A stretch of 24,000 nucleotides of DNA from Acutalibacteraceae bacterium (GCA_963616155.1 CAVEJY010000167.1:12810-36809), one strand, 5' to 3'; shown: positions 1 to 17,438, counted from the stretch's first letter. Program-made: numbers and translations. Notes: generated from the letters alone by a model not told the origin.

Positions 1-1724
1 CCTACAAGTTGAACGACCAGGGTGACCAGCGCACAACAGACCAAGCTACCAACAACATGAGCCTTGGTTGGGGATGGGGTACAACCAATACCTTGAATTA
101 TAAGTTTGACGTTAAGAAGCACGACTTCGATATTCTTGTGGGTACTGAGTTCGGTGTAAGCCGTCCTGATTACGGTTACAACTTGAATGTTACCACCTCC
201 AACTCCATCTTTGGAGATTTGGAACATGCCTATATGTCTTTGATGAAGGACAACAAGAAGGGGTCTGTTTCTGGTCTTCCCTACACAGACTCCCGCGGTA
301 TGTCTTATTTCGGTCGTTTGAACTACAACTACGATGAGAAGTATATGTTCTCCGCCATCATGCGTGCCGATGGTTCTTCCATGTTCGCTCCTGGTCATCG
401 TTGGGGCTACTTCCCCTCATTCTCTGGAGGTTGGGTTGTTTCCAACGAGAAGTTTATGGAGCCTGTGACCAAGTGGTTTGACTTCTTGAAGATTCGTGTC
501 GGTTGGGGTCAGAATGGTAACAAGAACATTTCTGCATTTCAGTATGAGGCTGCATTCGCATACGATGAGTACAGCAACTATTCATTTGGCAACTCGAAGG
601 ATGACCCAACTCGCGGTGCATCTCTTACCCGTTTGGCAAATGACGAGCTGACATGGGAGACATCAGAGCAGCTTGACTTAGGTTTCGACGCTCGCTTCCT
701 GAATAGTCGTTTGGGATTGACCTTCGACTGGTATCAGAAGACAACCAAGGACTTGTTACTGAACGTTCCTGTTTCTCCTACGACAGGTTTCAGCACCCAG
801 TTGAAGAATGCAGGTACCGTACGCAATACGGGTGTCGAGGTGGCCTTGACTTGGAACGACAAGATTGGCAAGGACTTCCAGTACAACATTGGCTACAATA
901 TCGCTTACAACAAGAATGAGGTAACGAAGGTGAACAGTACTCAGAAGTACAACTCCGGCGGTTCTGACTTGTTGGCACAGGGTACAGGCTACATGGCTCG
1001 TTTCGAGGAAGGTCATCCTATTGGGTACTTCTGGGGTTACAAGACTGCCGGTCCTATCCAGAACGAGCAGGAACTCCAGGAATACATCAATACGTTAAAA
1101 GATCATGATGCAGCTAACTCTCATCAGGGTTCAGACCTCAAGGTGGGTGACTTGCGTTTCGTGGATGTCAATGGCGACGGTGTCATCAATGATGAGGATA
1201 AGACCGACCTCGGCAATCCTAACCCAGACGTTACGATGGGTATTACCCTCGGAGCATCTTACAAGGGTTTCGACGTGAATATCACTGGTTATGCAGCACT
1301 TGGTCAGCAGGTTGCTCGCTCTTATCGCAAGTTCACTGACGGTGAGTATGAGAACTTTACAACAGAGGTCTATGACTATTGGAATGGCGAGGGAACGTCT
1401 ACCAAGTATCCCATGTTCGCAGCGATGAACCGTGGTGTGAACTGGCAGTCTATCTCTGACATCTACATTGAGGACGCAAGTTATTTCCGCTTGCAGAACT
1501 TGACGGTCGGTTACGACTTCACCAAGATCTGGAAGAAGAGTCCTTTCCAACAGCTCCGTCTCTATTTCGCAGCCCAGAACCTCTTCACCATTACTGGCTA
1601 TAAGGGTATGGATCCTGAGAATGGTATGGCCCTGAACTCCTCAGAGCCTTGGGTTACTGGTGTTGATGTTGGTAACTATCCACAACCACGCACCTTTATG
1701 TTTGGTGTAAATGTTAAGTTCTAA
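1..1724 (+). CDS. SusC/RagA-family TonB-dependent outer-membrane transporter, C-terminal part (5' end lies outside the window)
   Basis: The frame is open from the window edge; the track's M at 9 is an in-frame TTG. It ends at TAA 1722-1724. Barrel motifs match the complete paralog at 14325-17420 (RADGSSMFAPGHRWGYFPSFSGGW vs RADASSRFADGHRWGYFPSFSAGW). It ends in a terminal Phe (VNVKF), and a SusD gene follows 19 nt downstream. Confidence 0.9.
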   Translation, partial: YKLNDQGDQRTTDQATNNMSLGWGWGTTNTLNYKFDVKKHDFDILVGTEFGVSRPDYGYNLNVTTSNSIFGDLEHAYMSLMKDNKKGSVSGLPYTDSRGMSYFGRLNYNYDEKYMFSAIMRADGSSMFAPGHRWGYFPSFSGGWVVSNEKFMEPVTKWFDFLKIRVGWGQNGNKNISAFQYEAAFAYDEYSNYSFGNSKDDPTRGASLTRLANDELTWETSEQLDLGFDARFLNSRLGLTFDWYQKTTKDLLLNVPVSPTTGFSTQLKNAGTVRNTGVEVALTWNDKIGKDFQYNIGYNIAYNKNEVTKVNSTQKYNSGGSDLLAQGTGYMARFEEGHPIGYFWGYKTAGPIQNEQELQEYINTLKDHDAANSHQGSDLKVGDLRFVDVNGDGVINDEDKTDLGNPNPDVTMGITLGASYKGFDVNITGYAALGQQVARSYRKFTDGEYENFTTEVYDYWNGEGTSTKYPMFAAMNRGVNWQSISDIYIEDASYFRLQNLTVGYDFTKIWKKSPFQQLRLYFAAQNLFTITGYKGMDPENGMALNSSEPWVTGVDVGNYPQPRTFMFGVNVKF

Positions 1725-1743
1725 CTTTTTAAATGAATACACA

Positions 1744-3552
1744 ATGAAAAAGATATTTTTGTTCGTAGTAGCCCTTGCTACTTTGGGACTGTCTTCTTGT
1801 GGCATCGATGACGTGAAGAACGTTGGTGAAATGTCTACGAGTGAGTTCCCGAAGTCAGATGCTGACGCAGAGGCTATCTTGGCTGGTGTTTACCAGAATC
1901 TGAATACTATCAATGCGAATCCGCAAATGTCATTCTTGTACTATGCAGCCCTTGCCAGTGATGACCAGCTCGGTGGTGGTGGCACCAATGACAAGTTGAT
2001 GCAGGCTGAGGATTTGCTCTGTAATTACAACGCCGATATGACGAATCAGTTCTATTCTGACCGTTATGCAGGTGTGGCCCGTGCCAACAATACCATCAAG
2101 TACTTGAGCTTGGCTACGAATATGTCTGAGTCGACAAAGAACCAGGCTGTCGGCGAGGCAAAGGCTCTTCGTGCCTTCTACTATTATGAGTTGGCTTCCA
2201 TGTATGGCAATGTACCTTTGGTGACAGACCCTGAGGAGTCGAATACCACTCAGGGTGACGTGAAGGTGCTTTGGGGGCAGATTCTCCAGGATTTCTATGA
2301 GGCTGCAACCACGATGCCCGATGTTCGTAAGACCGACGGTCACTTGGACAAGTATACCGTCGAGGCTTTGTTGTGCCGTGCTTGGTTGTTCTACACTGGT
2401 TTCTACTGCAACGGTACGACTACGGCCGACTTGGTAAGCACCAACTATGCGCCATTGACATCCGTGGAGCTGCCCAATGGTACTACCCTTACCAAGCAGG
2501 ACATCATCACAGCCATTGATGATTGTGTCAACAATTCCGGCTATGAGTTGCTTGCCGACTATCGTAACTTGTGGGCTTACACCAACAACAAGGTTGTAAA
2601 TGATTATCCATATACAAAGGGACAGAACCTGCAGTGGGCAGAAAATGACAATGGAGTAAACCCAGAGTCAATGTTCGCTATCAAGTTCAACAAGTTCGCC
2701 TCTTGGAGCACCACTATCGGTTATGCGAATGGCTACGCACTTCATTTCGGTGTTCGTGGTGGTCAGGATTATTCCAATACTTTCCCGTTTGGTCAAGGCT
2801 GGGGTGCAGGTCCTGTAGCTCCCAACTTGGTGAAAGACTGGAAGAATGCAGACCCCGAGGGAAAAGATGCCCGCTTGAAGGCAACTGTATGTGACGTGAA
2901 CGACAAGAACGAGATGCCTAATTATACTCGTGGTGGTTGGGCTGACTTTGTACAGGAGACAGACTACTATTCCAAGAAGTGGTCTCCCATCTGTGCCAAG
3001 AATGACGGTTCTTTCAAGACGAAAAATGACGACGGTACTACTTCTATCCCTGATTATGTGGCTTGCTTTGAGACATTGATGTATCCTGACAACTGGGGAA
3101 CTTCCGGAGAGAACAACTTCCAGTTGAGCAATATCCATGACCTGGTGTTGGTTAGATATGCGGATGCCCTCTTGATGCAGAGTGAGCTGAAGGAGGATGT
3201 CACAGGAATGAACGAGGTACATAAGCGTGCGACAGGTGTTGCCAACTATTATACTACCTATTCTTTGGCAAACCTTCAGAACGAGCGCCGTTGGGAGCTG
3301 GCTTGTGAGGGAATCCGTTGGAACGACATCCGTCGCTGGCACATCGCTCAGGTGGCATTGGCAAAACAGGAGAATCAGCCTGTTTACTACTGTGGCAGTC
3401 CTGCAACCAACTCTGCCCACAATGGCGGTTATGTGGCTCGTTACAATGCAACGGCTGGATTCCAGAAGATGCCAGAGACTCAGGTGGCTCTTGGCACCGT
3501 TGTCCAGAATGACGGATGGACATCTGCCGACGCAGAGTATACTGGTTGGTAA
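1744..3552 (+). CDS. SusD/RagB-family outer-membrane glycan-binding lipoprotein
   Basis: The ATG at 1744 gives MKKIFLFVVALATLGLSSC, a signal peptide plus lipobox Cys. The 1711 start in the track is an upstream extension overlapping the SusC stop. The C-terminal SusD hallmark NERRWELACEGIRWNDIRRW is present, and the gene sits directly after SusC. Confidence 0.9.
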   Translation: MKKIFLFVVALATLGLSSCGIDDVKNVGEMSTSEFPKSDADAEAILAGVYQNLNTINANPQMSFLYYAALASDDQLGGGGTNDKLMQAEDLLCNYNADMTNQFYSDRYAGVARANNTIKYLSLATNMSESTKNQAVGEAKALRAFYYYELASMYGNVPLVTDPEESNTTQGDVKVLWGQILQDFYEAATTMPDVRKTDGHLDKYTVEALLCRAWLFYTGFYCNGTTTADLVSTNYAPLTSVELPNGTTLTKQDIITAIDDCVNNSGYELLADYRNLWAYTNNKVVNDYPYTKGQNLQWAENDNGVNPESMFAIKFNKFASWSTTIGYANGYALHFGVRGGQDYSNTFPFGQGWGAGPVAPNLVKDWKNADPEGKDARLKATVCDVNDKNEMPNYTRGGWADFVQETDYYSKKWSPICAKNDGSFKTKNDDGTTSIPDYVACFETLMYPDNWGTSGENNFQLSNIHDLVLVRYADALLMQSELKEDVTGMNEVHKRATGVANYYTTYSLANLQNERRWELACEGIRWNDIRRWHIAQVALAKQENQPVYYCGSPATNSAHNGGYVARYNATAGFQKMPETQVALGTVVQNDGWTSADAEYTGW

Positions 3553-3585
3553 TCGACAATGTTGAATCTTAAAATTTGAACTACA

Positions 3586-5106
3586 ATGAAAAAATCAATA
3601 TTATTCATGGTGATGGCCGTTGGTCTGCTTACGGCTTGTGATCCTTCTAAGGATGATATAAGCGTGCCAAGCAGTAGCCTCACCGCTGATCAGTTGGGTA
3701 GTGGTTTCACCTACACCCAGTATGGGGATGATGAATATACAACTCAGGCAGAGGATGGTAACTACTTTACATTCGTAACATCTCCTTCCAGAGTGGTATC
3801 TATTTATCAGCTTGACGAGGATGGGGCCAAGTCGGTCTTGGTTTCTGGTGTCGCCAATGGTAAGTTCTCTATCGTCCCCAAGCGCGGAAACCCGAGCGAG
3901 CAGAAAATCTATATTGAGACCTTGAACTTCGATGGCTCCAAGGTGGTGACAGAGAAGACGGTCAACGTATATGTTCCTTCCGAGTTGACTCCCGAGATGC
4001 GTATCTTGGCAAGTGATTCTTATGGTCACAAGATTTGGAAATGGGATACAACATGGCGTGCTGATGGTGGTGCTTGGGGTAACATGGGTTATGCTCCTGG
4101 TGATGGTGAGTCGTTCGCCAATGATGGCAACGGAATTTGGTGGGCTTGCGCTCCCGCCGACCTGGCTACTCAGCTGCAGCATTCCGACACAGGTCAGGCA
4201 ACAGGTGAGGAAGACCCCAATGCTTATATGGAATTCTATGACGATGGAACTATCATCACTTACGATGGTGGTGGCAATCAGATTCGAAAGGGTAAGTATT
4301 CTGTCCTGAACTATACTGGTGAGAGAAATATTCCTTCCATCGACCAAAGCCAGGCCAACTGGTCTTATGGTACATTGCAGACCACAGAGGGGGCTATCCT
4401 CTTCCCATTCCAGATCAATGGTAACGGCACGAAACCTACTGAGTTCGAAATCATGCAGCTGGATGCCAACCACTTGAAACTGATTTACGCAGCTTCTGGC
4501 ACAGGCAGTTGGAGCGAGGCAACATGGTGGGCATTCAAGAGTAACTCGGATCCTGAGTGTGCCTTGACCAACTATGGTACTAAGGGCTGGACATGGGATA
4601 CTGACTGGCGCTCTGACAAGGGTGCTTGGGGTAACATGGGTTATGCTCCCGGTGACGGTGATTCCTTTGCCAATGATGGTAATGGAATTTGGTGGGGCTG
4701 TGCTCCTGCTGATTTGGCTACTCAGTTGCAACATTCCGACACGGGTGTCGCTACAGGTGAGGAAGATCCCAATGCCTATATGACATTTGACTGGAAGACC
4801 AGCACGATTGTAACTTACGACGGCTCTGGCAACCAGATACGTCAAGGTAAGTTTGAAATCCAGAACTGGGGTATGGGTGACCGCACCATCTCCACCATTG
4901 ACGGTAGTCAAAGCAAGTGGGCAATGGGTAACTTGCACACTGATGCAGGCTCTATCCTCTTCCCATTCCAAATCAATGGTGGAGGTACGAAGCCTACCGA
5001 CTTCGAGATCATGCAACTTGACGGCAACCACTTGAAGTTGATTTACGCAGCTCCTAACACAAGTAGCTGGGGTGAGGCAACATGGTGGGCTTTCAAGGCT
5101 AAGTAA
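3586..5106 (+). CDS. PUL-associated surface lipoprotein with two tandem ~184-aa Trp-rich repeat domains (SusE/F-position candidate glycan-binding protein; family not recognised)
   Basis: MKKSILFMVMAVGLLTAC provides the lipobox. The gene starts 33 nt after SusD on the same strand. It contains an internal duplication (see the repeat features). The function is inferred from position in the PUL only. Confidence 0.85.
   Translation: MKKSILFMVMAVGLLTACDPSKDDISVPSSSLTADQLGSGFTYTQYGDDEYTTQAEDGNYFTFVTSPSRVVSIYQLDEDGAKSVLVSGVANGKFSIVPKRGNPSEQKIYIETLNFDGSKVVTEKTVNVYVPSELTPEMRILASDSYGHKIWKWDTTWRADGGAWGNMGYAPGDGESFANDGNGIWWACAPADLATQLQHSDTGQATGEEDPNAYMEFYDDGTIITYDGGGNQIRKGKYSVLNYTGERNIPSIDQSQANWSYGTLQTTEGAILFPFQINGNGTKPTEFEIMQLDANHLKLIYAASGTGSWSEATWWAFKSNSDPECALTNYGTKGWTWDTDWRSDKGAWGNMGYAPGDGDSFANDGNGIWWGCAPADLATQLQHSDTGVATGEEDPNAYMTFDWKTSTIVTYDGSGNQIRQGKFEIQNWGMGDRTISTIDGSQSKWAMGNLHTDAGSILFPFQINGGGTKPTDFEIMQLDGNHLKLIYAAPNTSSWGEATWWAFKAK
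4027..4539 (+). repeat. Intragenic tandem repeat, copy 1 (HKIWKWDTTW ... EATWWAFKS)
   Basis: It aligns codon for codon with copy 2 at a 552-nt (184-codon) offset. For example, ggtgcttggggtaacatgggttatgct occurs at both 4069 and 4621. Confidence 0.9.
4579..5100 (+). repeat. Intragenic tandem repeat, copy 2 (TKGWTWDTDW ... EATWWAFKA)
   Basis: Same evidence as copy 1. The shared blocks are WGNMGYAPGDG-SFANDGNGIWW-CAPADLATQLQHSDTG-ATGEEDPNAYM and ILFPFQING-GTKPT-FEIMQLD-NHLKLIYAA. Confidence 0.9.
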
Positions 5107-5148
5107 TTTGAATTTGTTTAAATACTGATTATTTGATAAGTTTATGGG

Positions 5149-5185
5149 GGAGTGGGACATAGAGATTATGTCTCGCTCCTCTTTG
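5149..5185 (+). terminator. Candidate intrinsic terminator of the SusC/SusD/lipoprotein unit
   Basis: GGAGTGGGACAT (5149-5160) pairs with ATGTCTCGCTCC (5168-5179), giving 12 bp including two G-U pairs and a 7-nt loop. It is followed by TCTTTG, so the T-tract is weak. Confidence 0.45.
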
Positions 5186-5194
5186 CGTTACTTA

Positions 5195-5385
5195 GTGCCC
5201 TTTAGGAGCAATTTCCTGCTCCTTCCAAGGCAACAAATTGCCCCTAAAGGGGGCATAAACGTAATGTCTATAGACACCGGGAAGAACGACTTTCTGCTGT
5301 TGGGTGTTTACTTCATTTTCCCTTCACCCTTCACCTTTAGGGCTGAAATGCCGATAAACACAGGGGTGACGAGGGTGAATGGTGG
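5195..5385. other. Repeat- and helix-dense non-coding element (candidate structured RNA or protein-binding array)
   Basis: CCTTTAGG occurs at 5199 and 5334, with the inverted copy CCTAAAGG at 5243. Hairpins are AGGAGCA/TGCTCCT (5204-5223) and GGCAA/TTGCC (5229-5242). GTCTATAGAC at 5266-5275 is a palindrome. A perfect tandem CTTCACC-CTTCACC (5322-5335) faces GGTGAcG, GGTGAAt and GGTGgtt (5365-5387). Confidence 0.3.
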
Positions 5386-5462
5386 TTGACGAAATGTGCC
5401 CTGCAAGAGTGTGCTGGACAAATCATTGGACTGCATTATTTTTGTTAAACCCCACCAAAATC

Positions 5463-5493
5463 TTGGTGGTTACGATAATTAGTTGTATCTTTG
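5463..5493 (+). promoter_or_regulatory. Bacteroidota-type promoter (-33 TTG at 5463, -7 TATCTTTG at 5486-5493)
   Basis: It matches the TAnnTTTG -7 consensus, with a TTG exactly 23 nt upstream. The candidates at 14234/14257 and 21809/21786 have the same spacing. The -33 element lies inside a perfect hairpin, CCACCAA-aatc-TTGGTGG (5452-5469). An alternative -7-like box, TATTTTTG at 5437-5444, lacks a TTG at that spacing. Confidence 0.5.
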
Positions 5494-5588
5494 CGGTGTT
5501 TTTATAATTAACTGATGTGGAGGAAAAATTATCTAAATAAAATTTCAGAACGTAACCAAAAACGAAAGGAAATATTGGTTGGGTATTT

Positions 5589-5603
5589 CTTTGATTATCA
5601 AAG
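5589..5603. repeat. Perfect 15-bp palindrome CTTTGATtATCAAAG
   Basis: Read directly from the sequence: 7-bp arms around a single central base. It ends 4 nt before the ATG at 5607 and lies about 100 nt downstream of the predicted promoter. Confidence 0.8.
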
Positions 5604-5606
5604 CTA

Positions 5607-5696
5607 ATGCGCAGTGGTGTTGTAGTTGGTGGCTTGGCGACAGTTTTGTTTGCTTATTTTGGTAATGAAATTCTTAAAGTGAAACTTAAAATATAA
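5607..5696 (+). CDS. Candidate 29-aa hydrophobic small peptide (MRSGVVVGGLATVLFAYFGNEILKVKLKI)
   Basis: ATG at 5607 and TAA at 5694-5696. It is below the 60-aa cutoff of the ORF track. It has one hydrophobic stretch and lies downstream of the 5486 promoter. The AT-rich context and short length make this weak. Confidence 0.25.
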   Translation: MRSGVVVGGLATVLFAYFGNEILKVKLKI

Positions 5697-5700
5697 GATT

Positions 5701-5805
5701 ATGGAAATGTTAACTATTATATTAGCCTTGGCAAGTGCTATTGGCGCAGGGTTGATTGTTTGGTCTAAGACAAAAGCTGGTCAAAAGTGGCTTGAGAGTC
5801 TTTAA
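5701..5805 (+). CDS. Candidate 34-aa single-pass membrane peptide (MEMLTIILALASAIGAGLIVWSKTKAGQKWLESL)
   Basis: ATG at 5701 and TAA at 5803-5805. A clean ~18-residue hydrophobic helix is followed by a basic, amphipathic tail. It ends 15 nt before the lipoprotein gene at 5821 and starts 4 nt after the previous small ORF. Confidence 0.4.
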   Translation: MEMLTIILALASAIGAGLIVWSKTKAGQKWLESL

Positions 5806-5820
5806 AAAATACAAGATACG

Positions 5821-6405
5821 ATGAAAAAGATAATGACAATGGTTATTGCTGGTCTCATGGCCGTGACGAGTATGGCGGTAATGGCTGGTTGTAAGACTAC
5901 AAATAAGGGCGCTTGCCGTATTCATGGCACGATGGAGTCGAGCCGATGGGATGGCAAGAAGATTTTCCTTGTCCCGATGTTTGGGGTGCAGGATGCGGCT
6001 CATGTCGATTCGGTGGTGATTGAGAACGGCAAGTTTGAGTTTACCGCCGACACCATGGAGATGAAGGTGATTCGTGTGGACTATCATTTCCGTGACGGTG
6101 TGCAAGACTTGCTGGTGGTGTCGGAGCCTGGCGATGTGCAGGTTATCATTGGTGGTAACAGTGTTTCGGGAGGTACTCCCCAGAATGATTCCCTCCAGAC
6201 GTGGAAAGACCGGGTGATGAAGTTCAATACCGAGTATAACCAGTTGAGGATGCAAGCCCGACAGACGGGTTCGGACGCTGTCCTTCAGTCTAAGGGCAAG
6301 GAAATACAGAACGCCTTGAGGGCGTACAATGATTCCTTCGCCAAGCGCCAGCCTCAGGGAGTTTTCAAGGATTTTCTCCTGAGGATGTATCCTTCCGCTA
6401 AATAA
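5821..6405 (+). CDS. Lipoprotein with a DUF4369-like domain and no attached thioredoxin domain
   Basis: MKKIMTMVIAGLMAVTSMAVMAGC provides the lipobox. The segment RIHGTMESSRWDGKKIFLVP...VDSVVIENGKFEFTAD follows the pattern I remember for DUF4369, which is usually the N-terminal domain of Bacteroidota AhpC/TSA-like lipoproteins. The family call is from memory. Confidence 0.8.
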   Translation: MKKIMTMVIAGLMAVTSMAVMAGCKTTNKGACRIHGTMESSRWDGKKIFLVPMFGVQDAAHVDSVVIENGKFEFTADTMEMKVIRVDYHFRDGVQDLLVVSEPGDVQVIIGGNSVSGGTPQNDSLQTWKDRVMKFNTEYNQLRMQARQTGSDAVLQSKGKEIQNALRAYNDSFAKRQPQGVFKDFLLRMYPSAK

Positions 6406-6411
6406 CCGTCT

Positions 6412-7971
6412 ATGAAAAAGATCATGAGTAAATATGGGAAGGTGGCACTGGTCGCATTGTTCGGCTTGTGCGTCTTCCTCTTTTGGTATTGCGGCTATCC
6501 GCAAGCCCTCTGTTATCATGAGCAAAACCAACTGTTCCTGTGGACAGCGGATTACTTCCTGCACGACCTGATCGTAGCAGGGGGCTTGGCAGACTATCTC
6601 TCCGAATTCCTGGTGCAGTTCTATTATGTTCCTTGGTTGGGAGCATTGCTGTTGGCTTGCCTTTTCATGGCATTCCTGTCGCTTACTTATCTCGTAATCC
6701 AGAGTTTTACGGGGAAAACTCTCCGATGGTACTGGATGCCTGTCAGTCTCTTGCCCTCGTTGTGGCTCTTGATGGTGATGGGCGACCCGGAGGTGTTGCT
6801 CTCTTTCCCCGTGGCTTTGACTTTGGCTCTATTGGCGGTGTGGCTCATGAATAAGGGTTGCAAAAAGTGGGAGAGCCGTTTCTTGCTGTTAGAGCTCTTG
6901 ACAGTCCCTGCGCTCTTCTGGCTGTTGGGCGGAGCGGTGACATGGCTCTACGTCTTGACTCGCATCGCTTTCTGTTGCAAGCACTATCGAAAGCTTTCTC
7001 CCGTGTTCCTTTCGATTCCTTATCTCCTTGCCGTGCAACTGATATGCTATAATACCTTCCTTATACAATATCCTTTGGAGTCGGTGATGATAGGTATCAA
7101 CTATTATCGGGGACCACAGGAATTTCCAGGTAAGAACTATGGGTATGACAAAGATTTGTATCGACTCTTGAAGATGAATATGCTGGTGAGGCAGGGCAAG
7201 TGGAATGACATAGTCCACGAGGCTGAACAATATCAGATAACGACGGCTTTTTATAGCAATTGTGTGAACCTTGCTTTGGCAAAGACCCGTCAGCTCGCCG
7301 ACCGCCAGTTCTCCTTTTACCAGAGTGGAGAGAACGCTTTGTTGGCTCCCCGCTCCCGTGACAATATGACGATGTATCCGACGATGGAGGCGTTTTGGAA
7401 TTTAGGGATGGTCAACTCGTCCCTGCGTTACGCCACCGACTTACAGGCTTCCATCTTGAATGCCAAGGTGAGCGGACGGTTGATGAGGCGCATCACCGAG
7501 TGCCAGATGGTGAATGGCAAGTATGCCGTCGCCCGGAAGAATATCGACCTCTTGAAACAGTCGCTCTTCTATCACGACTGGGCGGTGAAGGCAGAGGCGA
7601 TGCTGGGCGACGATGTGGCTATCAGCCGAGACTCCGAACTGGGTAGGGCGAGGAGAATGCGCTTCAAGAAAGACATGATTTATAGCTACCCCGAAATAGA
7701 AAAGATGTTGGGACTGCTCTTCATCAACAATCCCGACAACAAGATGGCGCTCGACTACTTCATGGGGCAGATGCTCCTGAAGGGAGACTTCCAGGGGTTT
7801 ATGCAATATGGTGCCAGTTGGGTACAGAGATATGGCGGCTATATGCAAATGCCGGTAGGCTATCAGGATGCCGTGAGGTGCATACAGAACCGTGGCAATG
7901 TGCCGGGGTCTCCCTATGCGGCGTATGCTAAGAGAATGATGACCCAACAACAGGAAGGAGGCAGACGATGA
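6412..7971 (+). CDS. Polytopic inner-membrane protein (about 8 TM segments in residues 1-220) with a C-terminal soluble helical-repeat (TPR-like) domain; possibly the Bacteroidota DUF6057 family
   Basis: It starts 6 nt after the previous stop. Hydrophobic segments include VALVALFGLCVFLFWYCGY, WLGALLLACLFMAFLSLTYLVI, LLPSLWLLMVMG, FPVALTLALLAVWLM, LLTVPALFWLLGGAVTWLYVL and IPYLLAVQLICY. The C-terminal half is hydrophilic and helical. The DUF6057 assignment is from memory and unverified. Confidence 0.85.
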   Translation: MKKIMSKYGKVALVALFGLCVFLFWYCGYPQALCYHEQNQLFLWTADYFLHDLIVAGGLADYLSEFLVQFYYVPWLGALLLACLFMAFLSLTYLVIQSFTGKTLRWYWMPVSLLPSLWLLMVMGDPEVLLSFPVALTLALLAVWLMNKGCKKWESRFLLLELLTVPALFWLLGGAVTWLYVLTRIAFCCKHYRKLSPVFLSIPYLLAVQLICYNTFLIQYPLESVMIGINYYRGPQEFPGKNYGYDKDLYRLLKMNMLVRQGKWNDIVHEAEQYQITTAFYSNCVNLALAKTRQLADRQFSFYQSGENALLAPRSRDNMTMYPTMEAFWNLGMVNSSLRYATDLQASILNAKVSGRLMRRITECQMVNGKYAVARKNIDLLKQSLFYHDWAVKAEAMLGDDVAISRDSELGRARRMRFKKDMIYSYPEIEKMLGLLFINNPDNKMALDYFMGQMLLKGDFQGFMQYGASWVQRYGGYMQMPVGYQDAVRCIQNRGNVPGSPYAAYAKRMMTQQQEGGRR

Positions 7972-9431
7972 GGAAAATTATAGGAACGTTTATTATAGGT
8001 GCCTTGTTGGCGGCTTGTTCGCCATCGGTGGAGAATCCTACGAGGGTAGACCACCAGCCGAGCATCTATCCAGACTATATTGGTGTGACGATACCGGCGA
8101 ACATCGCTCCTCTCAACTTCAACATGAAGGGGGAGGCGGTGGATGTCGTGGATGTTGTGGCGAAAGGTAGCAAGGAGGGTGAAATCCATGTGAGTGGAGA
8201 GTGGGCGGACTTTGATGTGGACGAGTGGCATCGGCTTACCCGGCAGAACAAGGGAGGGAGCATCACCTTTACCGTCTGCACCCGTAAGGACGGGGAGTGG
8301 AAACAATACAAGGACTTCCAGATGCAGGTGAGCCCTTATGACTTGGACGACTATGGCTTGACCTATCGCCGCATCGCGCCGGGCTATGAGGTGGGTGGCG
8401 ATATCGGCATCTACCAGCGTGACATCCATACCTTCGAGGAGTCTGCTATCATGACAGAGACGGCTCTCCCCGGCAGGTGTTTCAATTGCCACACTACCAA
8501 CCGCACTGACCCTAAGCAGGTGACGGCGCAGATCCGTGGCGACGGTGGTGGAACGCTCGTGATGAAAGAGGGCAAGCAACAATGGATTGACACCAAGACC
8601 GACTCTACCAAGGCTGCCGGCAGTTATGCCTATTGGCATCCGGAGGGCAACTATGTGGCTTATGCGGCCAACAATGTGTTCCAGAGTTTCTTCGTGGGTA
8701 CCAAGCAATCCATCGAGGTGTACCATACCTTCAGCAACATCGTCTTGCTCGATACCCGTACCAATGAGCTGGTACTCGACGAGCGGCTGATGACACCCGA
8801 CTGGCTGGAGATATTTCCTGCCTTCAGCGCTGATGGCAAGACCTTATATTATAGTACCTCGAAGGAATGCCGTGTGCCTGCGGAATACCTCAAAGTGAAA
8901 TGCTCGTTGGTCAGCATTCCTTTTGATGCCAAGACGGGGATGTTTGGCGAGAAGGTGGACACCCTCCTCAACGGCCCGAAGACTAACATGAGCTATGTCC
9001 TCGCCCGTCCCTCGTATGATGGCAAGTGGTTGATGTACACCTGTTGCAGCAGGAGCAACTTCCCCATCGTGCAACCTGATGCCGACTTGTGGCTGATGAA
9101 CCTAAAGACCCGTGAGACGCATCCCTTGCGGGCAGTGAACAGCCGAATGTCGGAGAGCTACCACAACTGGAGTAGCAACTCCCGTTGGTTTGTGTTCTCC
9201 AGCAAGCGGGGCGACGGCATCTATACCCGTCTCTATCTGTCCTGCATCGACGACAAGGGCAATGCCACCAAACCGTTTCTGCTTCCGCAGCGCAATCCCT
9301 GGAAATATTACCACGGCCTGTTCGATGCCTACAACGTGCCCGACTTCACCAAGACCAAGGTGAATCTCGACATCCGAGAGACCCGCAACCAGGTATTCTC
9401 CGATGAACGCCCCAAGGTAAAGCTGAGGTAG
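7968..9431 (+). CDS. Lipoprotein with a PD40/TolB-like beta-propeller and a single CXXCH motif
   Basis: Its ATG overlaps the upstream stop (ATGA at 7968-7971). MRKIIGTFIIGALLAAC provides the lipobox. CFNCH lies at residues 171-175 (nt 8478-8492). PD40-like repeats are FSADGKTLYYSTS, PSYDGKWLMYT...DLWLMNLKTRETHPL and WSSNSRWFVFSSKRGDG. Confidence 0.85.
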   Translation: MRKIIGTFIIGALLAACSPSVENPTRVDHQPSIYPDYIGVTIPANIAPLNFNMKGEAVDVVDVVAKGSKEGEIHVSGEWADFDVDEWHRLTRQNKGGSITFTVCTRKDGEWKQYKDFQMQVSPYDLDDYGLTYRRIAPGYEVGGDIGIYQRDIHTFEESAIMTETALPGRCFNCHTTNRTDPKQVTAQIRGDGGGTLVMKEGKQQWIDTKTDSTKAAGSYAYWHPEGNYVAYAANNVFQSFFVGTKQSIEVYHTFSNIVLLDTRTNELVLDERLMTPDWLEIFPAFSADGKTLYYSTSKECRVPAEYLKVKCSLVSIPFDAKTGMFGEKVDTLLNGPKTNMSYVLARPSYDGKWLMYTCCSRSNFPIVQPDADLWLMNLKTRETHPLRAVNSRMSESYHNWSSNSRWFVFSSKRGDGIYTRLYLSCIDDKGNATKPFLLPQRNPWKYYHGLFDAYNVPDFTKTKVNLDIRETRNQVFSDERPKVKLR

Positions 9432-9438
9432 GTTGGCG

Positions 9439-9446
9439 TATATTTG
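9439..9446 (+). promoter_or_regulatory. Possible -7 box TATATTTG upstream of the gene stub
   Basis: It matches TAnnTTTG and lies 25 nt upstream of the ATG at 9471. No TTG is present at the 23-nt upstream spacing seen at the other promoters. Confidence 0.3.
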
Positions 9447-9470
9447 TACATCCTAAAAACACGTTGAGAT

Positions 9471-9659
9471 ATGGCAAGAAAATTATACCCGATAGGAATA
9501 CAGACGTTTGAGGAGATTCGAAGACCCGACAATCTCTATGTCGACAAGACGGAATACGTCTATCGTATGACGCATACGGATGGCAAGTATTTCTTCTTGA
9601 GCCGTCCCAGACGGTTTGGAAAATCGCGACCGAAACAACTTAAAACTTATTCTATATGA
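9471..9659 (+). pseudogene. N-terminal stub (~52 codons) of an AAA-ATPase-like / PD-(D/E)XK family gene (PF09820-type, normally >500 aa)
   Basis: MARKLYPIGIQTFEEIRRPDNLYVDKTEYVYRMTHTDGKYFFLSRPRRFGKS matches the conserved N-terminus of this abundant Bacteroidales family, including the YVDKT and FLSRPRRFGKS blocks. Similarity stops at about 9626. Ten unrelated codons follow, then a TGA at 9657-9659. Confidence 0.75.
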
Positions 9660-10102
9660 TTGTATCCAACTTACAGAATTCGGAGAGGGTAGAGTCGCTC
9701 CATCCTCTCTTCAAGCAAGTCTTCGACTTCGTGAAGAGCCACGACCTGCTCCATGAGGAACCGGGACGCATCACGCTGGACGGAGACAACCTGTTCATCA
9801 ACAACTCTAACCCTGAGTGCGTGGCACAGGACAGCCAGAAGCTGGAGGTACACCGCCAGTACATCGACATCCATATCCTCCTGGAGGGGAGAGAACGCAT
9901 CGGATGGAAAGCCATCGAAGACTGCTGGCAGTTGGTGAAGGAATATGACGGGGAGGCCGACTTCGAACTGTATGCCGATGCCCCTACGACATTCGTGGAT
10001 CTGTTGCCCGGACAGTTCGCCATCGTCTATCCCGAAGATCCCCATGCCCCCATCATAGGGGAGGGGAAAATCAGAAAGCTCATCGCCAAAATCAAACTCT
10101 AA
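9656..10102 (+). CDS. YhcH/YjgK/YiaL (DUF386, COG2731 EbgC-like) family protein, cytoplasmic
   Basis: EVHRQYIDIHILLEGRERI and PGQFAIVYPEDPHAP parallel E. coli YhcH (ELHEQYIDIQLLLNGEERI, PGMFAVFMPGEPHKP). There is no signal peptide. The start codon overlaps the stop of the stub ORF (ATGA). Confidence 0.9.
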   Translation: MIVSNLQNSERVESLHPLFKQVFDFVKSHDLLHEEPGRITLDGDNLFINNSNPECVAQDSQKLEVHRQYIDIHILLEGRERIGWKAIEDCWQLVKEYDGEADFELYADAPTTFVDLLPGQFAIVYPEDPHAPIIGEGKIRKLIAKIKL

Positions 10103-10133
10103 TTCAAACTCTGACTCTAACATATCCCCTATC

Positions 10134-13100
10134 ATGAAAAGAACAACCCTTTTCCTTTTTGCCGCCCTCCTCTGTGGTACGTCTGCCCATGCCGACGGCA
10201 CCCTGGGTGGCTATTTCTATCAGCCACAGGAAGCCCCCACGGGGTGGGAATGGCAAAGTCCCGACTCCGTTGCCTACAACAAGCAGCAGCCCCATGCCTG
10301 GTTCTTCTCCTTCCGCACCACGGAAGAGGCACGCAAGGTGCTTCCTGAGAACAGCTCTTACTGGAAGTCGCTCGACGGGCAGTGGAAATTCCACTGGGCA
10401 CCCAATCCCGACGAGCGTCCCAAAGACTTCTTCCTGCCTGGCTATGACGTGTCGGCATGGGACGACATCACCGTGCCCATGAGCTGGAACATGGCAGGAC
10501 TGCAAAAGGACGGCAACAACAAGTATGGCGACCCGCTCTATTCCAACCAGCGCGTCATCTTCCAGCATACATGGAAGACGGTGGGCGACTGGAAAGGCGG
10601 GGTGATGCGCACGCCGCCCAAGGACTGGATGACCTACCGCAACCGCAACGAGGTGGGTTCCTACCGCAGGACCTTCACCGTGCCCGCCGACTGGAACGGA
10701 CAGGAGGTGTACATCGACTTCGACGGCGTGGATTCCTTCTTCTACCTCTATGTCAACGGCAAGTATGTGGGATTCTCCAAGAACTCGCGCAACCTGGCGG
10801 AGTTCAACATCACCCCTTATCTCAACAAGGCAGGACAGGAGAACACGGTGGCAGTGGAGGTGTACCGCCAGTCGGACGGTTCCTTCCTCGAAAGCCAGGA
10901 TATGTTCCGCTTGCCCGGCATCTTCCGCACCGTGGCACTCACGGCGAAGCCACAGGTGCAGGTGAGGGACATCAAGGCGGTGCCCGACCTCGACGACACC
11001 TATTCCCGTGCCAAACTGAACATCACCGCCCAGTTGCAGAACCTCTCCCGCAAGGCGGTGAAGGGCTACAGCGTACAGTATTCGCTCTATGCCAACCGTC
11101 TCTACTCCGACGACAATACCTTGGTGCCCGACGTGACGGCAACCGCCTCTCTCGAAGGTCGCCTTGACTCCAAAGGAGAAACCACGTTGGAGGCGACGAT
11201 CGACGCTGCCGACAAGGTGAGGCTGTGGAGTGCCGAGGCTCCCTACCGCTACACCTTAGTGGGAGAGTTGAAGGACAACAAGGGCAAGACCGTGCAGACC
11301 TTTTCCACCATCGTGGGATTTCGCAAGGTGGAGATCAAGGACACGCCTGCAGACAAGGATGAGTTCGGACTGGCGGGCAGATACTATTATCTCAACGGAC
11401 AGCCCATCAAGATGAAGGGCGTGAACCGCCACGAGAACAATCCACGGACGGGCCACACCGTCAGCCGCGGGCAGATGGAGAAGGAGGTGTTCCTGATGAA
11501 GCGCGCCAACATCAATCATGTGCGCAACTCCCATTATCCCGATGCCCCTTACTGGTATTACCTCTGCGACAAGTACGGCATCTATCTGGAGGATGAGGCT
11601 AACTTGGAGAGCCATGAGTACTACTACGGCAAGCAGAGCCTCTCTCATGTGCCGGAGTTCCGCAACGCCCACATTGCCCGCAATATGGAAATGGTACACG
11701 CCAACGTCAACCATCCCTCCATCGTCATCTGGAGTATGGGCAACGAGGCCGGGCCCGGCAAGAACTTCGTAGACTGCTACAATGCCATCAAGGCTTACGA
11801 CACCAGCCGCCCCGTGCAGTATGAACGCAACAACGACATCGTGGACATGGGTTCCAACCAGTACCCTTCCATCGCCTGGGTGCAGGGTGCCGTGAAGGGA
11901 ACCTATGATTTGAAATATCCTTTCCATATCTCTGAATACGCCCACTCTATGGGCAACGCCTGCGGCAACCTGATAGACTACTGGAACGCCATCGAGAGCA
12001 CCAACTTCTTCATGGGCGGCGCCATCTGGGACTGGGTGGACCAGGCACTCGACAGGCAAGACCCTGCCACCGGCAAGACCTACTGGGCGTACGGCGGAGA
12101 CTTCGGCAAGGACAACAAGCCCAACGACGGTATGTTCTGCATGAACGGCGTGATGCGCCCCGACCTCACCCCCAAGGCGCAGTACTATGAGGTGAAGAAG
12201 GTGTACCAGAACGTGGGTGTCAAGGCGGTGGACATGAAGAAGGGATTGGTGGAGATCTTCAACAAGAACTACTTCGAGCCGCTCAAGGGCTACCAGATCG
12301 TGTGGTCGCTCTTCAAGGACGGCGAGTGCGTGGCGAAAGACCAGCCGCTGCAAGGTCCCAAGAACATTGTCGGTCCTCGTGAGCGGGCGGTGTATACCTT
12401 GCCTTATGACTATGCGAGTCTCGACCCGGAAAGCGAGTATTTCGTCAGCGTGCAGTTCCTCCAGGGCAAGGACGTGCCTTGGGCAAAGAAGGGATATGTG
12501 CAGATGGAGGAACAGCTCCGTGTGAAGGGTGCCGACATCGCCGCTCCTTCCATCGCCACCGTTGCCAAGACGGGCAAGAAGTTGCAGTACAGGCTCGACA
12601 AGGCGGCTGGCCGTGCCACCGTCACGGGCAATGGTTTCGTGGCTTCGTTCGACGTGAAGACGGGTGCCATCTACAGTCTGAGATACGGAGAGCAGGACAT
12701 CATCAAGGATGGTAACGGTCCTAAGCTGGATGCCTTCCGTGCGCCCACCGACAACGATGCCGGCATCGGCTATCCCACGTCGTGGTTCAAGTTTGGCTTG
12801 TATGACTTGCAGCACACCGTCAAGGACTGGAGCTGCACGGCGAAGAAAGACGGCACCTGTCAGCTGAAGTTTACCGTGGAGAGCCAGGGCAAGGAAGGTT
12901 GCGACCAGCCTTACGGCAACCGCGACCGCGACCCGGAGACCGTTTATACTTTCGAGAAGAATAAGCATGAGTTGACGGACGACGACCTGAAGTTCACCAC
13001 TCAGCAGATATACGACATCTATCAGGATGGTTCCATCGAGCTGCAGAGTGTCATCAGCGCCAACCGCTCCCGCATCGTGTTGCCGCGCATCGGTTATTCG

Positions 13101-14051
13101 ATGCAGTTGCCGGGCGATCTGAACCAGTACGACTACTACGGCCGCGGCCCTGTCAACAACTATCCCGACCGCAAGACAGGCCAGGCAATCGCCCATTACC
13201 ACAGTGCTGTGGCAGACCAGGGCATCATGCTTCCCAAGCCGCAGGCACAGGGCAACCGAGAGGAAGTGCGCTGGTGTGCCGTCACCAATGCAGCCAAGCA
13301 GGGCGTGGCGTTCATCGCCGACAGTGTAATGTCTGCCTCTGCACTCCCCTGGAGCCAGCAGGAACTCACCCTCGCCGCCCATCCCTACCAGTTGCCCAAG
13401 AGCAGCGGCACCCACTTGCATCTGGATGCCAAGGTGACAGGACTGGGAGGTGCCAGCTGTGGACAGGGCGGTCCGCTCTCGCCCGACCAGACGCTCAGCA
13501 CCACCTACAGCTTCGGTTTCATCATCCGTCCCACCCGGTTGGACAACCTCGCCCGGCAGGTGAAGGTGTCGACGGCGAACAGCGAGATGGCGAAGGAGTT
13601 GAAGAAGAAGGTGCAGCAGAACCGTCAGGCATCGGAGTTGCAGATAGCCTTCGTCTCCAGTCAGGAGCCCGACGAGGGAGAGGCTGCCTACCTGGTGGAC
13701 GGCGACCCGTCTACCTTCTGGCACACGATGTATTCCATCACCCTCGCCAAGTACCCCCACTGGGTAGACTTCGATGCGGGTGTGGCGAAGACGCTCAAGG
13801 GCGTTACCTATACGGCACGCCAGGACGGCAGTCTGAACGGTTGCATCAAGGACTATGAGATCTATGTCAGCGACGACAACAAGTCGTGGGGCGAGCCCGT
13901 CGCCAAGGGGCGTTTCGAGAAGACCGCCAAGCGGCAGACAGTGATGTTTGCCAAGCCCGTCAAGGCACGTTATGTCCGCTTGCGTGCCCTGAACGAGCAG
14001 GACGGTCAGGACTTCGCCTCCGGATCGGAGTTCACGTTGATAGACAAGTAA
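10134..14051 (+). CDS. Secreted GH2 beta-galactosidase (LacZ-like, with Bgal small-chain domain) plus a C-terminal F5/8 type C (discoidin/CBM32-like) domain
   Basis: The signal peptide is MKRTTLFLFAALLCGTSAHA. GH2 motifs are GVNRHE, IVIWSMGNEAG (equivalent to the LacZ E461 acid/base) and ISEYAHSMGN (equivalent to the LacZ E537 nucleophile). FRAPTDNDAG marks domain 5. The C-terminal YLVDGDPSTFWHT...ARYVRLRALNE (about nt 13635-14048) is discoidin-like. Confidence 0.95.
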   Translation: MKRTTLFLFAALLCGTSAHADGTLGGYFYQPQEAPTGWEWQSPDSVAYNKQQPHAWFFSFRTTEEARKVLPENSSYWKSLDGQWKFHWAPNPDERPKDFFLPGYDVSAWDDITVPMSWNMAGLQKDGNNKYGDPLYSNQRVIFQHTWKTVGDWKGGVMRTPPKDWMTYRNRNEVGSYRRTFTVPADWNGQEVYIDFDGVDSFFYLYVNGKYVGFSKNSRNLAEFNITPYLNKAGQENTVAVEVYRQSDGSFLESQDMFRLPGIFRTVALTAKPQVQVRDIKAVPDLDDTYSRAKLNITAQLQNLSRKAVKGYSVQYSLYANRLYSDDNTLVPDVTATASLEGRLDSKGETTLEATIDAADKVRLWSAEAPYRYTLVGELKDNKGKTVQTFSTIVGFRKVEIKDTPADKDEFGLAGRYYYLNGQPIKMKGVNRHENNPRTGHTVSRGQMEKEVFLMKRANINHVRNSHYPDAPYWYYLCDKYGIYLEDEANLESHEYYYGKQSLSHVPEFRNAHIARNMEMVHANVNHPSIVIWSMGNEAGPGKNFVDCYNAIKAYDTSRPVQYERNNDIVDMGSNQYPSIAWVQGAVKGTYDLKYPFHISEYAHSMGNACGNLIDYWNAIESTNFFMGGAIWDWVDQALDRQDPATGKTYWAYGGDFGKDNKPNDGMFCMNGVMRPDLTPKAQYYEVKKVYQNVGVKAVDMKKGLVEIFNKNYFEPLKGYQIVWSLFKDGECVAKDQPLQGPKNIVGPRERAVYTLPYDYASLDPESEYFVSVQFLQGKDVPWAKKGYVQMEEQLRVKGADIAAPSIATVAKTGKKLQYRLDKAAGRATVTGNGFVASFDVKTGAIYSLRYGEQDIIKDGNGPKLDAFRAPTDNDAGIGYPTSWFKFGLYDLQHTVKDWSCTAKKDGTCQLKFTVESQGKEGCDQPYGNRDRDPETVYTFEKNKHELTDDDLKFTTQQIYDIYQDGSIELQSVISANRSRIVLPRIGYSMQLPGDLNQYDYYGRGPVNNYPDRKTGQAIAHYHSAVADQGIMLPKPQAQGNREEVRWCAVTNAAKQGVAFIADSVMSASALPWSQQELTLAAHPYQLPKSSGTHLHLDAKVTGLGGASCGQGGPLSPDQTLSTTYSFGFIIRPTRLDNLARQVKVSTANSEMAKELKKKVQQNRQASELQIAFVSSQEPDEGEAAYLVDGDPSTFWHTMYSITLAKYPHWVDFDAGVAKTLKGVTYTARQDGSLNGCIKDYEIYVSDDNKSWGEPVAKGRFEKTAKRQTVMFAKPVKARYVRLRALNEQDGQDFASGSEFTLIDK

Positions 14052-14066
14052 GCAAGAATAACACAG

Positions 14067-14110
14067 AAAAACAGGGTGTGTCATCAAGCTGATGGCGCAC
14101 CCTGTTTTTG
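14067..14110 (+). terminator. Rho-independent terminator after the GH2 gene
   Basis: CAGGGTGTG (14072-14080) pairs with CGCACCCTG (14096-14104), 9 bp with one G-U pair. It is flanked by an A-run upstream and TTTTT at 14105-14109. Confidence 0.75.
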
Positions 14111-14233
14111 AACCGCCGATAAACCCTCTAAATATAATAATGTGAAAACTCAAAATCGCAGTCATGCGCCCTGCAAACAGATGTCCGCCAAGAACTGCTT
14201 TTGGCTTTTATTAGAAAAAAGTAAGACTTTTTC

Positions 14234-14264
14234 TTGCAACTTTAGAAAAATTTTCATAGATTTG
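14234..14264 (+). promoter_or_regulatory. Bacteroidota-type promoter for the SusC/SusD pair (-33 TTG at 14234, -7 TAGATTTG at 14257-14264)
   Basis: This is the only TAnnTTTG match in this intergenic region. A TTG lies exactly 23 nt upstream, and the box sits about 60 nt upstream of the SusC ATG. Confidence 0.55.
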
Positions 14265-14324
14265 CAGTCGAGTAATATAGAATGAGACCTAAACCTTTAT
14301 AATTAATTCTTAACTTCATTGATT

Positions 14325-17420: not shown

Positions 17421-17438
17421 GTAACCTTATAAAAAGAT

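Follow-up and report, generated by a model that had tools for sequence, protein, structure and literature searches.

The three genes between positions 5821 and 9431 of a 24,000-nucleotide (nt) stretch of DNA assigned to Acutalibacteraceae bacterium (GCA_963616155.1, CAVEJY010000167.1:12810-36809; here called the window) encode a DUF4369 lipoprotein (g1), a DUF6057 inner membrane protein (g2), and a propeller lipoprotein with an invariant CxNCH motif (g3). On the evidence of sequence comparison, this unit is best explained as the periplasmic and inner membrane arm of an ancient five-component envelope system of the class Bacteroidia. The parts of the system would be SusC, SusD, a surface lipoprotein of the type of the 506-amino-acid (aa) protein encoded at 3586 to 5106 (up506), the DUF4369 lipoprotein, and one to three pairs of a DUF6057 protein and a CxNCH propeller. 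No family, solved structure, or paper that we found assigns a function to g1, g2, or g3, and literature searches retrieved no paper on DUF6057 (PF19529) or on CXXCH propellers of Bacteroidetes. What is new here is the inner arm, hitherto undescribed, of an uptake locus linked to SusCD.

Conserved gene order and the link to SusC and SusD

All three genes lie on the plus strand: g1 (194 aa) at 5821 to 6405, g2 (519 aa) at 6412 to 7971, and g3 (487 aa) at 7968 to 9431. An initial annotation, made from the sequence alone, had described three open reading frames (ORFs) packed so tightly as to imply cotranslation. Both coordinates and junctions are confirmed: g1 and g2 are 6 nt apart (TAA CCGTCT ATG), g2 and g3 share an ATGA at 7968 to 7971, and these junctions fit translational coupling. 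Since homologs of the three genes reach E values down to 0 and their order is kept across orders of Bacteroidia, their genuineness as genes is, on this comparative evidence, far beyond chance. Long ORFs on the minus strand (e.g., 5722 to 6564 and 7914 to 8726) were considered as genes and rejected as shadows of the conserved plus-strand genes.

Synteny was assessed in 80 loci from distinct species (Prevotellaceae), with g2 identities from 78% down to 41% and with ORFs classed against the window proteins. A propeller gene lies directly downstream, on the same strand, of 158 of 164 full-length DUF6057 genes, and a DUF6057 gene directly follows the DUF4369 gene in 70 of 73 cases. The 4-nt stop/start overlap is the modal g2/g3 junction (39 of 58 resolvable class A pairs) and is the commonest one in classes B and C too. 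Most relatives carry more than one DUF6057-propeller pair, namely, two in 49 loci and three in 17, the paralog classes of g2 and g3 remaining paired. Identity to the window protein is 41 to 78% (class A), 29 to 38% (class B), and 21 to 33% (class C) for g2, and 54 to 90%, 44 to 53%, and 32 to 38%, respectively, for g3. The conservation of gene neighborhood, which the initial annotation had set beforehand as its own check, is thereby borne out. That g1, g2, and g3 are mere neighbors, functionally unconnected and only incidentally tightly spaced, is effectively excluded by an order kept at these frequencies over 80 species and in other orders, together with the conserved 4-nt overlap.

The family is large and reaches well beyond the species sampled. 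At a level of 50% identity, an exhaustive search yielded 3,889 representatives, and past the Prevotellaceae its range takes in Dysgonomonadaceae, Tannerellaceae, Prolixibacteraceae, Marinilabiliaceae, and Carboxylicivirga, where the annotation reads only "DUF6057 family protein." The pairing holds in the distant loci from Draconibacterium, Marinilabilia, Tannerellaceae, and metagenomic contigs (L093 to L097). Copies identical to g2 occur on contigs of several metagenome-assembled genomes (MAGs) of one species, and among named relatives Segatella copri (74% identity) comes nearest, along with other Prevotellaceae. Six contigs with Segatella-type loci, which show 68 to 78% identity and an unchanged gene order, go under the titles Lachnospiraceae, Firmicutes bacterium CAG:103, Subdoligranulum, Sphaerochaetaceae, or Oscillospiraceae (L013, L019 to L022, and L025); these are probably misbinned or mislabeled. 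The window carries pair A alone, as does one other locus (L020), and by comparison with its relatives it is an ordinary, reduced, one-pair version of a widespread system.

The initial annotation had regarded the unit as an orphan wedged between two polysaccharide utilization loci (PULs), and this does not hold up. Upstream of the module, on the same strand, 55 of the 60 loci having at least 5 kb of upstream sequence carry both a SusD gene and an up506 homolog, and 52 of those 55 carry SusC as well; the gap between the up506 set and the module is often below 300 nt. Over all 80 loci, an up506 homolog is found in 64. The arrangement recurs outside the Prevotellaceae, the order being SusC-SusD-278 aa-DUF4369-(DUF6057 plus propeller)x3 in Draconibacterium and SusC-SusD-394 aa-DUF6057-propeller in Marinilabilia. 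In the window itself, the plus strand holds the 3' part of a gene for a SusC-like TonB-dependent transporter (9 to 1724, the gene starting before the window), a SusD-like lipoprotein gene (1711 to 3552; SusD-like_3, 3.5e-16, and SusD_RagB, 6.9e-14), and up506. On contigs of the same species, the complete SusC-like protein has 1,074 aa with CarboxypepD_reg and Plug domains (L001).

The protein up506, which matched nothing in Pfam or the PDB, contains an internal duplication of a domain of ~185 aa (residues ~136 to 318 and ~322 to 506). Single-domain homologs align to both halves, namely, the 278-aa protein encoded after SusD in Draconibacterium (L095:4245-5081; E = 8e-17) and a 167-aa protein encoded before the module in a distant locus (L093:51-554; E = 1e-12), and up506 can therefore be read as the duplicated form of the fifth conserved component. 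Its lipobox runs into an acidic stretch (LLTAC-DPSKDD), and the CDPSKDD beginning at the lipobox cysteine presumably resembles the acidic surface export signal of Bacteroidota lipoproteins. A PUL combines SusC/SusD with glycan-degrading enzymes. Here the Sus pair is present, and neither the window nor its relatives have a carbohydrate-active enzyme (CAZyme) in the conserved gene set; the GH2 (glycoside hydrolase family 2) gene downstream in the window is part of a different, nonconserved neighbor. For want of a CAZyme in the conserved set, the supposed upstream PUL is better read as the outer membrane arm of the same system. Taken together, a functional link between the DUF6057-propeller pair and the SusCD arm seems to us somewhat more probable than its absence.

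The membrane protein, the propeller, and their possible joint function

The middle gene had been likened to an uncharacterized membrane family of Bacteroidota, and that family can now be named as DUF6057: the model matches g2 over residues 10 to 493 (E = 2e-110; 370.8 bits, cut-off 29.8) and also matches all 27 aligned g2 homologs. A hydropathy scan and an AlphaFold2 model (predicted local distance difference test [pLDDT], 86.6; predicted TM-score [pTM], 0.82) agree on seven transmembrane (TM) helices, as expected from the earlier description of a polytopic protein. The cytoplasmic loops are rich in K/R, which by the positive-inside rule puts the N terminus in the cytoplasm. Given seven TM helices and a cytoplasmic N terminus, the all-helical C-terminal half of the model (~245 to 519), which resembles tetratricopeptide repeats (TPRs), would be periplasmic. 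A Foldseek comparison of the g2 model with the PDB returned only TPR proteins (MamA, NlpI, TadD, YfgM, and LbcA; best E value, 0.057), and in this list, dominated by the TPR domain, the membrane domain found no fold match. A profile search against PDB sequences was likewise negative, and a relaxed Pfam scan of the 27 members added nothing to the known family.

A DUF6057 alignment that spans all three classes and takes in the distant members retains [YF]xEQxQLF at the periplasmic end of TM1 (near-invariant; YHEQNQLF in g2, codons 6514 to 6537), (E/D)FxxQF[YF] entering TM2, and Gly174, and it contains no conserved His or Cys. In the first periplasmic loop, E37, Q40, D61, E65, and Q69 are conserved, and in the TPR domain a charged set consisting of E326, R356, R360, E363, K376, and N443. 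This layout invites comparison with glycosyltransferases of the GT-C type, in which loop 1 motifs are known and some members, the TMTC/TMEM260-type protein O-mannosyltransferases, bear TPRs. DUF6057 might accordingly be a minimal GT-C-like glycosyl- or lipid-transferase that uses a lipid-linked donor at the acidic loop 1 motif, with the TPR domain recruiting an acceptor and the propeller, via its Ig-like N-terminal domain, being either that acceptor or its presenter, such that envelope proteins or glycans are modified. The N-in topology, with TM1 followed by short periplasmic helices bearing near-invariant E37, Q38, and Q40 plus D61, E65, and Q69 and then by a periplasmic TPR domain, would suit such an enzyme, and so would the one-to-one pairing with a protein partner. 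However, the GT-C families of Pfam match none of the 27 members even at E values up to 10 (relaxed Pfam scans of all alignment members gave no transporter family either), and no solved GT-C is among the Foldseek matches listed, a list dominated by the TPR domain. Furthermore, seven TM helices are fewer than in characterized GT-Cs, the conservation of D125 does not extend to class C, and both the invariant CxNCH and the Sus linkage would be left unexplained. We regard this alternative as quite unlikely.

The third product had been described as a TolB-like propeller with a heme-type motif, and the propeller and the motif are both there. PD40 matches g3 at 33.2 bits (cut-off, 20.9) and matches 30 of 30 members, and the structure model, built from class A homologs only, consists of an N-terminal beta-sandwich (~25 to 125) and a seven-blade propeller (pLDDT, 82.2; pTM, 0.84). 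An identity with TolB itself was rejected, the TIGR02800 equivalog scoring 15 bits against a cut-off of 343.15; the best PDB sequence matches of g3 are to TolB and are marginal (E, 0.014 to 0.8). None of the three proteins is covered by an NCBIfam family. The closest folds are generic ones, i.e., the propellers of acylaminoacyl peptidase, prolyl oligopeptidase, tricorn, and thiocyanate dehydrogenase (E down to 1e-9), with TM-scores of at most 0.38 and 8 to 14% identity, and no heme protein stands out among them.

The motif is CFNCH in g3 (residues 171 to 175; codons 8478 to 8492). The pattern CxNCH is kept in 200 of 200 propellers examined, made up of 191 of 191 from the three paralog classes and 9 of 9 from distant taxa, and its carriers include Draconibacterium, Marinilabilia, and Tannerellaceae. 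Also conserved are KPFxLPQ and [ST]YHxW, the latter being SYHNWS in g3 (codons 9156 to 9173) and including His399, which is invariant in the A/B/C alignment, is retained in 9 of 9 distant homologs, and, judged by this conservation, could be the second axial ligand or a metal ligand. In the propeller model, CxNCH lies on the first strand after residue 163, and the segments around it have the lowest confidence in g3 (block means, 55 to 71), as would be expected if a cofactor were missing. Of the features that mark c-type cytochromes, g3 shows the conserved CXXCH motif and, by inspection of its sequence, the periplasmic export, and it does not match a known cytochrome c domain or fold. A separate observation concerns residues 209 to 218 (~8592 to 8621), a conserved TKTDSTKAAG (KNDSLKGS in class B) that holds a D-S-[TL] triplet. 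The general O-glycosylation motif of Bacteroidota is D(S/T)(A/I/L/V/M/T); the triplet fits it, and the motif is so short that this could be chance.

By inspection of the sequences, g1 and g3 have K/R-rich, hydrophobic signal sequences that end in the lipoboxes VMAGC and LLAAC, respectively, and a signal peptide with a lipobox is also found in all nine distant g3 homologs. Two lipoproteins with lipobox cysteines had been announced for the unit, and with the polytopic g2 between them the products do face the envelope. In g1, DUF4369 (PF14289) covers residues 33 to 124 (E = 1.5e-9; 38.7 bits, cut-off 25; profile positions 2 to 90 of 91) as a beta-sandwich domain followed by a helical C-terminal tail. 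Searches of Pfam and NCBIfam found no thioredoxin-fold family (thioredoxin, AhpC-TSA, or Redoxin) in g1 at E values up to 1, in agreement with the suggestion of a stand-alone DUF4369 domain; g1 lacks the C-terminal domain of the DUF4369-thioredoxin (TlpA-like) lipoproteins and does not belong with them. Its C-terminal 70 residues matched nothing, the whole protein found no PDB sequence, and the papers retrieved on DUF4369 dealt with thioredoxin fusions or a different gene of Bacteroides thetaiotaomicron. It may be an accessory periplasmic lipoprotein.

How might the pair work? Made in fixed proportion, g2 and g3 would assemble one to one on the outer (periplasmic) side of the inner membrane, with its own propeller held by each TPR domain; we consider the formation of this complex probable. 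CxNCH and His399 would bind a cofactor, the likeliest candidate being a covalent c-type heme. Covalent heme c is favored because the motif is canonical, the protein is exported, and CcsBA together with NrfAH is documented in related genera: c-type cytochromes (NrfAH) and CcsBA are described for Bacteroides, Porphyromonas, and Prevotella intermedia (PMC10434189). That the CxNCH site of g3 carries heme nevertheless seems to us a little short of an even chance. The polar cluster of DUF6057 (EQxQ after TM1 and ExxxQ before TM2) would lie at the periplasmic membrane surface beneath the propeller and could engage a lipid-soluble partner, e.g., menaquinol, or an imported ligand. In this way, the complex would capture or redox-process cargo of a nonglycan type imported by the linked SusCD/up506. 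As a combined account (complex, cofactor, and handling of SusCD cargo), we put this forward tentatively, as an account with clearly less than even chances. A more specific form is unlikely as it stands, namely, a novel respiratory or redox module in which a cofactor-less seven-TM protein with a quinol (or lipid substrate) site at the membrane surface clamps, via its TPRs, a one-heme lipoprotein propeller, with up to three specificities per genome and a dedicated SusCD importer to feed it.

Several observations weigh against the combined account. Pairs occur without adjacent Sus genes in three distant loci, a Tannerellaceae MAG and two metagenomic contigs (L093, L094, and L097), and in Segatella-type loci up506 is set apart from g1 by a terminator and a promoter. 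DUF6057 offers neither an invariant His nor an invariant Cys to a redox cofactor, and its membrane domain is without a fold match. As to the propeller, no cytochrome c domain model matches g3, only a marginal Paired_CXXCH_1 hit (E = 0.077) appearing in 2 of 30 members, and CFNCH is modeled, at low confidence, in a beta-strand. Known CXXCH sites form a helical turn. The invariant Asn between the cysteines and the Cys2His2 count would also fit a metal site. Finally, the locus contains no gene for a heme lyase or thiol reductase, and g1 is without a thioredoxin domain.

The metal site leads to an alternative in which the system is a nonredox scaffold. CxNCH and His399 would then form a structural Cys2His2 zinc site, and the TPR-propeller pairs would bind peptides or envelope proteins and serve to maintain the envelope or to handle peptides, in the manner of Tol/CpoB or NlpI, possibly passing on oligopeptides from a RagAB-like SusCD. 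The four conserved Cys/His ligands fit a zinc site, the linked SusCD locus is without CAZymes, and the best folds for g3 are peptide-gating propellers (acylaminoacyl peptidase, prolyl oligopeptidase, and tricorn), with weak DPPIV_N and Peptidase_S9_N matches in several g3 members; the g2 TPR domain, for its part, matches periplasmic adaptors of the NlpI, LbcA, YfgM, and TadD type. Those fold matches are all generic, though, with the low TM-scores and identities given above, a peptidase domain is absent, and g3 fails the TolB model by a wide gap (15 bits versus 343). Cys-rich zinc sites are uncommon in periplasmic proteins, and the polar cluster of DUF6057 at the membrane surface would find no explanation. 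We judge a scaffold of this kind to be unlikely.

Alternatively, g2 could serve g3 as a dedicated maturation and anchoring factor in the way of CcmI or NrfG, a TPR chaperone that presents an apocytochrome to the general heme attachment machinery, leaving g3 alone as the functional periplasmic enzyme. Each CxNCH gene is coupled to a membrane TPR gene that directly precedes it, which amounts to one chaperone per paralog. The invariant charges of the TPR domain (E326, R356, R360, E363, K376, and N443) suggest a peptide-binding groove, and g3 offers invariant, extended, Pro-rich segments at its ends (PxIYPDYxGVTIPxxIAPLNF and KPFxLPQ). In contrast, CcmI and NrfG cross the membrane with one or two TM helices and have no conserved seven-TM domain with invariant polar motifs, neither sequence nor fold comparison gave a match to CcmI, NrfG, or CcmH, and a factor of its own is not normally required for an ordinary CXXCH. 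Such a role for g2 is, in our view, improbable.

Promoter, leader, and flanks of the window locus

A promoter of its own had been proposed for the unit. Bacteroidetes promoters follow the -33/-7 consensus TTTG ... TAnnTTTG, for which a generic scan for sigma-70 promoters and terminators is unsuited; such a scan gave results at background level, and we judged the promoter by cross-species alignment instead. On the plus strand at 5462 to 5493, the window has a -33 box (cTTG, 5462 to 5465), a 20-nt spacer, and a -7 box (TATCTTTG, 5486 to 5493). When the up506-g1 intergenic regions are aligned, both boxes coincide with TTTG/TAnnTTTG boxes in three related loci (L013, L027, and L018). By this alignment, g1 to g3 have a genuine promoter of their own, conserved in four species, from which they would be transcribed. 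Downstream of the up506 stop lies a hairpin (5198 to 5251; 22-nt arms, 86% complementary), a candidate terminator, and a GC-rich hairpin with a T-run, different in sequence and similarly placed, is conserved after up506 in L013, L027, L018, and L011. An Rfam scan of 5000 to 10200 found nothing credible, its one subthreshold match being that of this hairpin to mir-2059 (30.6 bits; gathering score, 90), which is put down to chance, the hairpin being of a generic kind. The element is more plausibly terminator-like.

The leader between promoter and g1 had been credited with two micro-ORFs and a perfect palindrome. The features exist, whereas their reading as a regulatory leader does not stand. The promoter is only ~40 to 50 nt from the g1 ATG in relatives and 327 nt from it in the window, whose leader is, by this comparison, lengthened by insertions. 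The palindrome (CTTTGATTATCAAAG, 5589 to 5603; 15 nt, with 7-nt arms and a 1-nt center) falls in sequence that is missing from the short leaders of related species. Both micro-ORFs, which encode hydrophobic peptides (5607 to 5696, 29 aa; 5701 to 5805, 34 aa), belong to a strain-variable insertion of 199 nt on the plus strand (5605 to 5803) that is not present in a strain of the same species (at L002:9391). A 94% identical copy of the 34-aa ORF occurs in an S. copri MAG (L015:1635-1736), ~800 nt from g1, amid accessory genes and next to a gene for a DUF1016-like nuclease and small antitoxin-like ORFs. Being part of a strain-variable insertion and having a second context in that MAG, the micro-ORFs were rejected as leader peptides. 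On these comparisons, neither they nor the palindrome are conserved parts of the operon, and the 199-nt cassette may be a small mobile or accessory membrane peptide gene.

Codon usage was said to lie between that of the neighbors, and the GC content at third codon positions (GC3) indeed climbs stepwise, from 0.52 to 0.57 in the upstream Sus genes through 0.62, 0.66, and 0.71 in g1, g2, and g3 to 0.73 to 0.80 in the downstream genes (0.78 to 0.80 in the GH2/SusCD block). Overall composition breaks as well: the downstream block of DUF386, GH2 (with F5/8 type C), SusC, and SusD genes (9656 to 19109) has a GC content of ~0.57 versus ~0.48 for the upstream Sus genes (9 to 5106). Possibly, this downstream PUL came in later and displaced part of the locus. 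The site of pairs B and C is occupied in the window by a 62-aa remnant of an AAA-ATPase-like gene, the DUF386 gene, and the GC-richer GH2/SusCD block. The remnant (PF09820, profile positions 1 to 45 of 201; 9471 to 9659, plus strand) overlaps the DUF386 start by 4 nt and looks like a rearrangement scar at the position of the second and third DUF6057/propeller pairs of relatives.

Relation to known systems and implications

The statement that no characterized pathway lays claim to the unit has withstood comparisons by hidden Markov model, PDB, Foldseek, and literature. By analogy, the whole system would work most like a SusCD-type uptake locus. As in PULs, RagAB, and the four-component SusCD-lipoprotein complexes, SusC and SusD precede a surface-type lipoprotein whose cysteine leads into an acidic motif, in a block conserved across species. 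In contrast to these, the conserved set has no CAZyme, sensor, or regulator, and the extra DUF4369/DUF6057/CxNCH arm, which has its own promoter in Segatella-type loci, is without a counterpart in described PULs.

A second comparison is with the cofactor-scavenging loci XusABC and BtuB-BtuG of Bacteroides, which comprise a TonB-dependent receptor, a beta-propeller lipoprotein, and a polytopic membrane protein. XusABC is mentioned in the paper cited above for cytochromes (PMC10434189). The cast of a TonB-dependent transporter, a propeller lipoprotein, and a polytopic inner membrane protein is the same, whereas DUF4374/PepSY or BtuG there stand against PD40-CxNCH and DUF6057 here, with no sequence match seen in Pfam or NCBIfam. 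Moreover, the g3 propeller has no acidic motif of the surface export type, and the present system has up to three paralogous pairs.

Other resemblances are confined to parts of the unit. The TPR apocytochrome chaperones CcmI, NrfG, and CcmH are likewise membrane-anchored periplasmic TPR proteins encoded beside a CXXCH protein, but homology was not detected, DUF6057 has its conserved seven-TM domain, and no heme lyase gene is nearby. TolB of the Tol-Pal system, with CpoB/YbgF, also places a PD40 propeller with an N-terminal domain beside a periplasmic TPR protein; g3, unlike TolB, is a lipoprotein with CxNCH, fails the TolB equivalog, and has no adjacent tolQRA or pal genes. The TPR-bearing GT-Cs (TMTC1-4, TMEM260/DUF2723, and bacterial PMT_2-TPR proteins) share an N-terminal polytopic domain, an acidic first extracytoplasmic loop, and an extracytoplasmic TPR domain, and they differ in that DUF6057 has only seven TM helices and shows neither a sequence signal nor, with the whole of g2 as the query, a fold match to them among the Foldseek matches listed.

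Essentially all of the species sampled carry the locus, most often with two or three paralogous pairs, and it extends to free-living Marinilabiliales. Five co-conserved parts, in place of an orphan three-gene operon, make it a concrete target with testable residues (CxNCH, His399, and EQxQ). In many human guts and in the rumen, Segatella and Prevotella are dominant. If the propeller does prove to be the heme-bearing half of a redox module, the abundant fermentative Prevotellaceae of gut and rumen would possess a whole family of c-type hemoproteins that have gone unnoticed, and import by SusCD would connect straight to periplasmic redox chemistry. The SusCD uptake paradigm has so far been described almost entirely at the outer membrane; should the propeller be a hemoprotein, or the membrane protein an enzyme, the paradigm would gain a new inner membrane and periplasmic stage.

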